From contig JASTWF010000088.1 of the NCBI GenBank assembly GCA_030390025.1, positions 1,054,001 through 1,118,000 on the forward strand: a DNA stretch of 64,000 bases, read 5' to 3'. This document shows, piece by piece, positions 22,909-25,620 of this stretch. The notes below the pieces were generated by a model. The model was not told where the DNA came from, did no database searches, and saw only the letters and a list, made by a program, of their open reading frames with translations. This DNA is from Squalus acanthias. Lineage: Eukaryota. Position numbers and translations under genes: made by a program. How positions within the stretch are numbered: position 1 is the first letter of the stretch; each line of letters begins with the position of its first letter.

Positions 22909-23180
22909 TTGCTCCTCGAGTGTTTCCTTCTGTGAACAAGGCATCAACTATTGGACCGGCCGAACTCTCCTGCCTCGTCACGGGCTTTTACCCTCGCGAT
23001 ATCGAAGTCACCCTCCTGAGAAATGGCCAGCCGATCACGGACACGGAGTCCACTGGCATCCTGCCCAACCACGATGGCACCTACCAGCTCACGAGATGTG
23101 CTCAGATCGAGCTCGAGGATGGAGCCACCTATTCCTGTCAGTATAAGCAGAGCAGCAAAGCAGGAGTGGTGACTATTGGG
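22909..23180 (+). CDS. UAA: MHC class I heavy chain, alpha3 (Ig C1) exon; 3' end out of phase, alternative donor after 23217
   Basis: Acceptor tctcag|TT. Translates VAPRVFPSV...LSCLVTGFYPRDIEVTLLRNG...LPNHDGTYQL...YSCQY. The donor gtaaga at 23181 gives 272 nt (phase 0); gtgagt at 23218 gives 309 nt (phase 1). Confidence 0.92.
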
Positions 23181-23254
23181 GTAAGAGAAACAGCGACTGC
23201 AGGGGCATTGTCTCTCGGTGAGTCTTAAAGATGTTTATAATCACCTCTCCTCAT

Positions 23255-25620
23255 TCTGCCTTCTAAAATGCATCACTTCACACTTCTCTGCATTAAACTT
23301 CATCTGCCATGTGTCTGCCCATTTCACTGGTCTATGTCCTCCTGAAGTCTGTTACTATCCTCCTCGCTGTTTACTGCATTTATGAGTTTTGTGTCATCTG
23401 CAGACTTTGAAATTATGTCCTGTATACCCAAGTCCAGGTCATGAATATATATCAAAAAGAGCCGTGATCCTAATACTGTCCCCTGGGGGACACCACTCCA
23501 CACTTCCCTCCAGTCTGAGAAACAACCGTTCACCATTACTCTCTGCTTTCTGTCCCTTAGCCAATTTCGTATCCACGCTGCCACTGTCCCTTAATCCCAT
23601 GGGCTTTAATTTTACTAGCAAGTCTATTATGTGGCACTTTATCAAACGCCTTTGAAAGTCCATATACACAACATCAACTGCACTACCCTCATCAAGTTTG
23701 TCAAACACTATTTGCCTTTAACAAATCCGTGCTGGCTGTCAATTTATTAACCCATGTTTTTCCAAGTGACAGTTAATTTTGTCCCGGATTATTACATTAG
23801 CAAGAGAGGATATAGGTGATCAGCGGAGACTCTGGTTCAAATTGAGGAATAAGAGAGGACATAAAACTGGAATGAGAGTTGTCTAGAGGCCTCCTGATAG
23901 CAGCAATGGAGTGGCTGAATGTATTCATTCAGAGATTAGAGAGGCTTATAGCAAATGCAGCGTAGTTTTAATGGGAGACTTTAATTTTCATAGATTGGGA
24001 AGAGCAGAATAGCTCAAGTCAGAATGGTACTGATTTTCTTGAGTGCCTTCAAGATAGTTTTCTGGAAAAGTATCTTCTAGAACCAACAAGGGGGCAGGCC
24101 ATCCTAGATTTAGTAATGAGTAATGAGCCAGATGCAGTTAATCTGACAGTAAGGGAACATTTATCTAACAGTGACCATAATACGATCAAATTCAATGTTA
24201 GGTCTGAAAAGGAGAAAGGTAACAGTTTACTAAGATTCAAGATTTTTGGTAAGGCTAACTTTAACAGGATGAGACAGAGACTGACGACAGCAAACTGGTC
24301 CAAACTGTTATTGGGTGAAACTGCAGATGAACATTGGGAGGTGTTGAAGAAAGAATTCAGCTTGATACAGGGCCAGTATATACCTCTAAGGGGCAAGAGC
24401 TCTAGTTACCTAATGAAACAGACATGGTCGACAAAAGAGGTGAAAGATAACCGATCTAAAGGAAAAAAGGAAAGAATAGTGTAGATCCAGGGGACTGGGA
24501 GAGATGTAAAGAAGATAGTAAGAGCTGCTAAATGGAATATGAAGCGAAACTTGCACGGGATATCAATCATAGAATGGTTACAGCACAGAAGGAGGCCTGT
24601 CGAGCCCGTACCGGCTCTCTGCAAGAGCACTTCAGCTAGTCCCACTCCCCCGCCCTTTCCCCGTAGCCCTGCAAATTTTTTTCATTCTGTTACTTATCCA
24701 AGTCCCTTTTGAAAGCCACGATTGAATCTGCCTCCACCACCCTCTCGGGCAGTGCATTCCAGATCCTAACCACTCGCTGTGTAAAAAAGTTTTTTCTTTC
24801 GTCACCTTTGGATCATTTGCCAATCACCTTAAATCTGTGTCCTCTGGTTCTTGACCCTTCCGCCAATAGGAACAGTTTCTCTCTCTCTACTCTGTCTCAA
24901 CCCCTCATGATCAAGATCAACACACAGTTTTTACAATTATATTCGAGAATGTGGGCCCTTTAAAAAACAGATGCGGGTAATATTGCAAAGGAAAATAAGG
25001 AAATTACAGATTTGTTGAATAATTACTTTCAGTTTTCACAGTAGAGGGAGAGGATACCTGCTATTCCAGGGAAATTAATAATGAATCAAGGACTGGAACT
25101 CACTAATGTTAACAAAAGCAAGAAAACAGTATTAGAAAAAATAAATGGCATTGAAGGCTGACAAATCCCCGGAACTGATGGTTTCCACCCCAGGGTTTTA
25201 AAGGAAGTAGGCGAGGAAACTGCAGATGCTTTAGCCATAATCTTCCAAAGCACTCTCGATTCAGGAATTCTCCTATAGATTGGGAAATTACAAATGTAAC
25301 TCCATTATTGAAGAAAGGTGAGTGAGAAACCAGGAAATTGTAGACCTGTTGGTCTAAATTTGAGCTGATTAGAGAGCCAGCATGGATTTGTAAAGGGGAG
25401 GTCATGTCTAACGAACCTAATTGAATTTATTGAGGAAATAACTAAAGTAGCAGACAGGGGAATGTCTATTGATGTAGTTTGTATGGACTTCCAGAAGGCA
25501 TTCGATATGGTTCCACATAAGAGACTTATTAAAGCTCATGGAATTGAAGGCATATTATTGGCCTGGTTAGGAGATTGGTTAGGCGGTCGAACACAGAGAG
25601 TAGGGATAATGGGTATGTAC
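23255..25620. mobile_element. Cluster of degenerate CR1 fragments (minus 23255-23795; plus 23795-25620; minus 3' end at 24568-24909 with atcaa TSD)
   Basis: GVPQGTVLG, SDHN and MDFQKAFDMVPHKRL peptides. Confidence 0.82.

Follow-up and report, generated by a model that had tools for sequence, protein, structure and literature searches.

A shark MHC class I gene fragment with neither leader nor membrane anchor, probably a decaying relic of a block duplication

The locus studied here is a fragment of a shark MHC class I gene. It is UAA/Ia-like and contains the alpha1, alpha2 and alpha3 exons only. This copy, referred to below as B1, is probably a non-functional, decaying relic of a block duplication and not a switch between membrane-bound and secreted products. 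Of the outcomes offered in a preliminary description of the locus, it is the disabled gene that gains support, via the absent leader, promoter, transmembrane and cytoplasmic exons, and the anchor appears to have been gone before the frameshift arose. The window is the whole stretch of DNA analysed (64 kb, of which 454 bases are N); a gap of 500 N (C3751:981769-982268) is situated 84 kb upstream of B1 alpha1. The surroundings are rich in long tandem arrays, and related genes are scattered over small contigs. The exons show the UAA/Ia-like pattern, alpha1 and alpha2 (MHC_I) and alpha3 (C1-set) in phase 1, with B1 alpha3 out of phase at the inherited donor. The features are collected in Table 1.

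Table 1. Features of the B1 locus, in positions of the window
Feature	Position	Strand	Remarks
Intron 1 remnant	9919..11909	+	95% over 1,000 nt vs intron 1 of A2; from G000:C3751:1063919
Alpha1 exon	11910..12170	+	261 nt, open, phase 1-1, splice sites intact; Pfam MHC_I, E 3.8e-25
Alpha2 exon	15772..16044	+	273 nt, open, phase 1-1, splice sites intact; Pfam MHC_I, E 1.7e-23
Alpha3 exon, to inherited donor	22909..23180	+	272 nt, phase 0, net 4-nt loss; Pfam C1-set, E 2.5e-16
Alpha3 Trp to Cys codon	23097-23099	+	vs homologues
Inherited donor, GGG/GTAAGA	23181..23186	+	now out of phase; 272-nt exon ending at 23180, phase 0
Second donor-like site, TCG/GTGAGT	23218..23223	+	exon ends at 23217; 309 nt, phase 1
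Read-through tail VRETATAGALSLGES and stop TAA (23226-23228)	23181..23228	+	unspliced frame
Decayed antisense LINE reverse-transcriptase piece	23247..23717	-	common to intact paralogues; blastx
ATTAAA	23292..23297	+	in 8/8 paralogous introns
Intron-4 break	24552..24559	+	likeness to the intact C771 gene stops, about 140 nt short of its transmembrane exon
3' flank likeness to intact paralogues resumes	37442..40905	+	88% over 37442-38383, 97% over 38456-40905

The nearest named protein is the spiny dogfish MHC class I protein AAN77874 (P0001), with identities of 70% in alpha1, 78% in alpha2 and 87% in alpha3. We take this protein to be Sqac-UAA*01. Its alpha3, anchor and tail are found on contig C771 of G000 at 100%, which makes a Squalus dogfish the likely source of the genome. 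AAN77874 is equipped with a leader and with transmembrane and cytoplasmic parts, and its 276-nt alpha3 has Trp as the last residue; B1 lacks all of these features. No B-like protein was present among 27 and 61 matches (best 87% and 78%). On the tree of alpha1 and alpha2 (33 rows, without nurse shark UAA, UCA, UDA and UEA) B falls outside the starred UBA clade and pairs with its sister gene A2 (91/85, without a star); this pair and AAN77874 share an open fork. By eye, B is unlike UCA and UDA. Eight of the nine peptide-anchoring residues YYYYRFTKW, as listed in PMC2846915, are kept in B, the exception being Thr143, replaced by Ser.

The alpha3 of B is 62% identical to that of its zebra shark relative P0014 and 40–47% identical to proteins of the UBA type. 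Judged by supplementary file 10 of PMC10751288, it is of the nurse shark 'UAA-2' type with the CQYE...W end. According to the same paper, the number of elasmobranch Ia-like genes near the classical gene depends on the species, and C2H2 zinc-finger genes flank them. B1 has the alpha3 type of these genes and differs in being truncated at both ends; unlike that account, a scan of 340 kb revealed no C2H2 zinc-finger motif. Classical class Ia genes are closely linked to TAP1/2 and PSMB8/9; among the best five scored candidates here, TAP-family matches lie on contigs C3487, C3685, C1521, C13 and C3, and none on C3751. The preliminary description held that alpha3 exons normally end in Trp. This is true for 13/13 homologues of the same type, whereas nurse shark UAA and UBA end in Tyr in the PMC10751288 supplement.

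The intact C771 gene has its transmembrane exon starting about 1.5 kb behind alpha3, and two tail exons come after it. Across 290,001 contiguous bases (C3751:868000-1158000) there was no match to transmembrane or cytoplasmic coding sequence, and the same queries find both in the intact gene I1. Genome-wide, by protein and DNA search in which first-look candidates were scored, the transmembrane exon occurs four times, each time behind another alpha3; four of the eight alpha3 exons of B1's type have none. A distant or diverged transmembrane exon was sought by protein and by DNA search in the window, the 290 kb and the genome, and none was found. A replacement anchor provided by a cryptic exon was likewise considered: three of 36 acceptor-like sites at 23261-64000 gave a weakly hydrophobic stretch, none of them convincing. 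One of the 36 (47084) is in phase with the second donor. Its mean hydropathy is 2.28 versus 3.09 for a real anchor, and similar sequence recurs elsewhere in the window. As no transmembrane exon lies downstream, splicing from the second donor would reach no membrane exon, and the frameshift at 23180 has no anchor exon to shift. The stalk-extended membrane form put forward earlier is thus left without the exon that should follow it.

The 5' end is missing as well. The match between B1 and intron 1 of A2 begins about 785 nt behind the A2 leader exon. No leader or promoter match was found between the upstream alpha3 and alpha1 (28 kb) in either B1 or its second copy B2, with 4/4 controls recovered at 87–94%. 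None of the ATG-to-donor candidates (0/21 in B1, 0/19 in B2) has the hydrophobic core of a signal peptide; both controls were positive. An alternative start at an intronic ATG in frame with alpha1, six codons ahead of it, was rejected, for it yields no signal peptide. B2 is without the same exons in sequence free of N. Having no promoter, B would make no transcript of its own, and having no leader of its own, a read-through chain would not be secreted. Classical class Ia genes require leader, transmembrane and cytoplasmic exons, of which B1 has none; on anatomy, B1 is placed outside the classical class Ia genes and the HLA-G5-type isoforms.

The genome search with the B1 alpha3 exon returned 53 matches, eight of them at identity of at least 83%. 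B2 is a near-identical copy 134 kb upstream of B1. In 290 kb of the contig the map reads: A2, with promoter, leader and alpha1-3, all three exons open and no anchor; B2, with alpha1-3; A1, a lone alpha3 exon; B1; and a promoter and leader that belong to the following gene. Neighbouring class I copies are decaying as well, namely A1 and I2, the latter with a 2-nt loss in alpha3. The A+B block (about 87 kb) is present twice at 96–99% identity. The first block stops at the 500-N gap and the second starts after 27 kb of tandem array (19-bp unit), so that the two may be haplotypes; otherwise they may be a tandem duplicate. The intron-4 break is identical in four separately assembled copies (A1, A2, B1 and B2), and the likeness of the B1 3' flank to intact paralogues resumes beyond the place where the transmembrane and cytoplasmic exons are absent. 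Since A and B introns match at 95% on either side of the break, and at 90% when compared with the intact gene, the anchor was presumably lost before the A/B split and hence before the frameshift.

We infer the following order of events at the B locus: anchor loss, leaderless copying, frameshift and doubling. A deletion beginning in intron 4 would have removed the anchor and tail exons of an Ia-like gene. A portion of the anchor-less gene, starting 0.8 kb inside intron 1, would next have been copied about 27 kb downstream, giving type B; the promoter and leader would have been left behind and type B would be leaderless. Type B may then have lost 4 nt at the alpha3 end, its conserved Trp becoming Cys and its cryptic donor being improved by one base. 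Finally, the A+B block would have come to be represented twice on the contig, whether by tandem duplication or as a pair of haplotypes. The B frameshift is in this order a late and likely inconsequential lesion, and any read-through RNA using either donor would meet no anchor exon.

The frameshift is genuine and not an assembly slip. The preliminary description was correct in this, and the assembly indel that it considered is excluded; its size estimate of one missing base does not hold, the lesion being a net 4-nt loss with adjacent substitutions relative to 6/6 other paralogous exons (276 nt where measured). The loss is present in the B copies only (B1 and B2) and absent from A. The exact junction occurs twice in G000, and a read-derived contig of run X1 spans 23069-23206 with 0 differences and 0 gaps; another X1 contig, of the A type, has the four extra bases. 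An assembly or sequencing error is accordingly hardly conceivable, although X1 may be the source sample and the lesion may be a private variant.

At the exon end, the coordinates given in the preliminary description were reproduced: the out-of-frame Trp and the phase-0 exon at the inherited donor, the longer phase-1 exon at the second donor, the unspliced stop and the ATTAAA. The alpha3 acceptor lies directly before 22909. Splicing at the second donor would append VRETATAGALSL to alpha3, and the unspliced frame adds 15 residues before TAA, comparable to the intron-4 stop reached after 13–14 residues in intact paralogues. The donors were compared by sequence. The + strand of the window holds 10 instances of the consensus G/GTRAGT (0.16 per kb), and its chance occurrence 37 nt from the exon end would be unusual. 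GT is present at this place in 8/8 paralogues, and GTGAGT in the two sister copies A1 and A2 (TCT/GTGAGT); the four anchor-bearing paralogues have TCA/GTGGGT. Thus the second donor, whose conservation had been raised as a question, is shared with A1 and A2 as a GTGAGT hexamer, and no consensus is found in the anchor-bearing genes. As GT or GTGAGT was already there in the relatives, a single base change is enough to make the B consensus donor. The hexamer is identical to those of the alpha1 and alpha2 donors of B1 itself, and its −1 G was gained on the B branch, the same branch as the frameshift. In the structure model the frameshifted alpha3 end is predicted to keep the G strand (residues 83-90) of a seven-strand domain, with mean pLDDT of 78.6.

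The ATTAAA sits inside the antisense reverse-transcriptase remnant, which was recognized by blastx against RT-like ORFs elsewhere in the window (E 8e-29 and 8e-8). We take this remnant to be CR1-like; a Pfam search of it gave no match. The antisense origin of the ATTAAA suggested earlier is retained. The depth of run X1 leaps to more than 100,000 beyond 23256, within the remnant. The ATTAAA as an adaptation was rejected, all eight paralogues carrying it, intact ones too.

The changes on the B branch were counted with one outgroup and without the last alpha3 codons. In alpha1 and alpha2 together, 10 are silent and 13 are replacements (binomial P 0.01–0.05); alpha3 has no silent and 4 replacement changes, and the three exons as a whole have 10 silent and 17 replacement changes (P 0.05–0.17). 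The A2 branch has 8 silent and 30 replacement changes. Trp64, kept in 13/13 homologues of the same type and 23/25 of all homologues, is Cys in B. B1 and B2 do not differ at any of the 534 nt of alpha1 and alpha2, versus 133 differences in 9,600 nt (1.4%) of flanks, represented by four clean segments with tandem repeats left out (Poisson P 0.0006–0.004, post hoc). The alpha3 exons of the two copies differ at 5/272 positions. The silent excess and the B1/B2 identity in alpha1 and alpha2 are compatible with a functional phase early on the branch, with gene conversion or with a function that B still has.

Reads of four of the 24 listed runs were aligned to the locus. The run listing names no RNA run as holding B sequence, which counts for neither side. 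RNA data came from X21 and X23, raw single-cell RNA libraries read to about 26%; their organism label differs from that of X1, and the animals may not carry B. The B base at 23099, T, was present in none of 141 RNA reads (non-B in 95/95 reads of X21 and 46/46 of X23, from 48 and 28 start places). At 22953 the B base, G, was not seen either (non-B in 75/75 and 16/16 reads, respectively). The A-type base was also absent in the two RNA runs, both at 23112 (0/79 and 0/34) and at 23115 (0/67 and 0/28). All 50 spliced alpha2 ends read in RNA are of the AAN77874 type; intact-type class I genes are expressed in X21 and X23. By start places and the rule of three, we estimate B RNA in these libraries at roughly less than 4% of the intact level. 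No intron-4-retaining B RNA was found in X21 or X23, with zero depth at 23208-23231 in animals that may not carry B. In X21, about three reads at 23177-23207 stop at the point at which introns of the intact type part from B, and are probably unspliced RNA of the intact type. High, broad expression and polymorphism are classical Ia traits; in the few samples at hand, B shows no reads at 23099, and B1 equals B2 in alpha1 and alpha2. In X5 and X6, whose kind is guessed to be DNA, 0.59 of the B words are present, versus 0.37 explained by A and intact types; the share is near that of both the spliced B exon (0.57) and B2 genomic DNA (0.62). Word shares in X9-X13, X16 and X19 are 0.14–0.25 and count as evidence for neither side. 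With almost no coverage of alpha3, X24 does not allow its animal to be typed.

Several observations speak against a simple relic. Both alpha1 and alpha2 have an open frame, undamaged splice sites and, together, nearly all peptide anchors, the silent excess and the B1/B2 identity affect precisely these two exons, and the word share in X5 and X6, guessed to be DNA, exceeds what A and intact types explain. The frameshift and the donor improvement fall on one branch, a coincidence without explanation under this reading, and the shifted end is still modelled as a G strand. B might instead form the end of a longer transcription unit that lacks an anchor and is driven by the promoter and leader of gene A, which we regard as unlikely. 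The leader, skipping the A exons, or else the whole A ectodomain would be spliced to B alpha1; B alpha3 would be the terminal exon, with the stop at 23228 and polyadenylation at 23292, and the chain, single or tandem, would be secreted. The anatomy of A2 suits such a unit, the first class I exon after A2 alpha3 is B2 alpha1 (27 kb on), all junctions being in phase 1, and the signs of constraint on B alpha1 and alpha2, the predicted G strand, the X5/X6 word share and the anchor-less class I genes of salmon described in PMC2846915 are in line with it. It is opposed by the lack of both B-type and A-type reads in X21 and X23 and of a B-like protein among the 27 and 61 matches, by the 8 silent and 30 replacement changes on the A2 branch and the Trp to Cys change in B alpha3, and by the partner of B1, A1, being a lone alpha3 with the nearest leader 197 kb off, across the gap. 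A soluble product made through the leader of the upstream anchor-less gene is possible, at a low probability. The same low chance is given to A and B forming one secreted transcript, either as a tandem of six domains with a pair of peptide grooves or as a form in which the leader is spliced to B, with the intron-4 tail and a LINE-derived poly(A) signal. If true, the oldest lineage with MHC would possess a class I molecule that is secreted and possibly has a double groove.

It is rather improbable that B is silent and serves as a sequence reservoir, its alpha1 and alpha2 being kept alike by gene conversion, mutual or with an expressed class I gene. The islands of B1/B2 identity at alpha1 and alpha2 would agree with conversion, as would the divergence from A2 being higher in exons (9–11%) than in introns (5%); however, uneven haplotype divergence can yield the same islands, no tract was traced, and no expressed allele with B-type tracts was found among the protein matches. 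Quite improbable is the reading in which B is a complete gene and its leader and anchor exons are absent just from the assembly. The tandem arrays, the 500-N gap, the relatives split over small contigs, the 454 N bases and the scoring of first-look candidates only in the genome searches leave room for it, but the same intron-4 junction in four separately assembled copies, the N-free B2 lacking the same exons and the 3' flank likeness resuming past them do not. Least credible among these readings of the gene is rescue by splicing, in which the second donor would restore the frame and give a membrane-bound chain with a stalk 12 residues longer. The hexamer, its phase 1 and the −1 G gained on the frameshift branch are as this would demand; still, the transmembrane exon was lost earlier, and the single hydrophobic site in phase is weak. 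A decaying relic is the probable reading, and as such the locus would be a clear, datable case of birth and death in a shark class Ia-like cluster, with anchor loss, leader loss and frameshift. For shark MHC typing it carries a warning: with alpha1 and alpha2 resembling those of a healthy classical allele, B would count as one in exon-based surveys.

In the literature searched, whose scope did not include the main shark class I papers, there was no account of this locus or of soluble shark class I. By analogy, B1 is most likely the kind of class I fragment left by block duplication in primates. Primate MHC-P, as described in PMC12674619, is a fragment with exons 3-7 that may be co-transcribed with its neighbour; like B1, it is a partial class I gene from block duplication and birth-and-death. 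The two are of independent origin, and B1 differs in keeping exons 2-4 with alpha1 and alpha2 open and in its silence being only probable. HLA-G5 is, according to PMC7677236, an isoform of a whole gene that makes the membrane form too, with an intron-4 tail of 21 residues. B1 resembles it in the early in-frame intron-4 stop and the short tail (15 residues), and differs in having neither a leader of its own nor an exon 5, with B-type RNA absent from X21 and X23. The HLA-G5-like soluble switch proposed earlier is contradicted by the missing signal peptide, the missing membrane isoform, the ATTAAA in all paralogues and the RNA reads at 23099. In salmon, according to PMC2846915, Sasa-ULA and Sasa-ZBA have no transmembrane and cytoplasmic domains, are expressed and are thought to be secreted, and the leaderless Sasa-ZDA is called a likely pseudogene. 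B1 joins anchor loss of the ULA kind with leader loss of the ZDA kind, and its sister gene A2 is the nearer match to ULA.

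Gene A2, a sister of the class I copy B1 in the window, possesses three ectodomain exons, all of them open and preceded by a promoter and a leader. The donor of its alpha3 exon is intact, no transmembrane or tail exon was found for it, and read-through past alpha3 adds 13 residues to the chain. No A-type RNA was seen in the two single-cell RNA runs, X21 and X23. As a possible source of a soluble class I molecule in the shark, A2 is more plausible than the window's copy. The other sister copy, A1, is a solitary intact alpha3 exon with alpha1, alpha2 and leader all absent, and is located behind a 27-kb array containing about 1,400 copies of a 19-bp unit.

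Coordinates of class I loci and repeats in the assembly G000 and in the window
Feature	Location	Loci or remarks
Gene A2	C3751:868519-904896	L074, L033, L082, L007
19-bp-unit array, then A1	C3751:999565-1037771	L097-L101, L006
I2 alpha3	C3751:1240338-1240538	L008; further I2 loci L060-L061
Class I loci	C3487	L034, L070-L073
Five class I genes	C812 and C3328	L037-L041, L085-L089
47-bp tandem array	window 19545-20920	29 copies; intron 3 of the window's copy
Three adjacent long open frames	window 44710-46371	+ strand
72-bp tandem array, GC-rich	window 50537-56730	87 copies

The layout proposed for A and B as one secreted tandem chain is also that of P0003, a sawfish protein model of 573 aa with a tandem pair of class I ectodomains and without a transmembrane segment, which may be a merged gene model.

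In the anchor-bearing paralogue I2, alpha3 is short by 2 nt, and tail exons were not found within the 20 kb examined. Contig C3487 probably belongs to the class Ia region: class I leaders are matched there four times, one alpha1 shares 85% identity with that of the named dogfish protein AAN77874, and there is a TAP-family match. Two of the five genes on C812 and C3328 were placed in the tree, where they cluster with nurse shark UBA (support 97/88); peptide anchors are altered in the one gene checked.

The 26 nt at window positions 25721-25746 recur exactly in intron 5 of the intact C771 gene and are possibly a remnant between the two deletion ends. Units akin to the 47-bp array directly precede alpha3 in the window's copy and in one intact paralogue. 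The three adjacent frames resemble a pogo/Tigger-type DNA transposase, and several frames are open in the 72-bp array.
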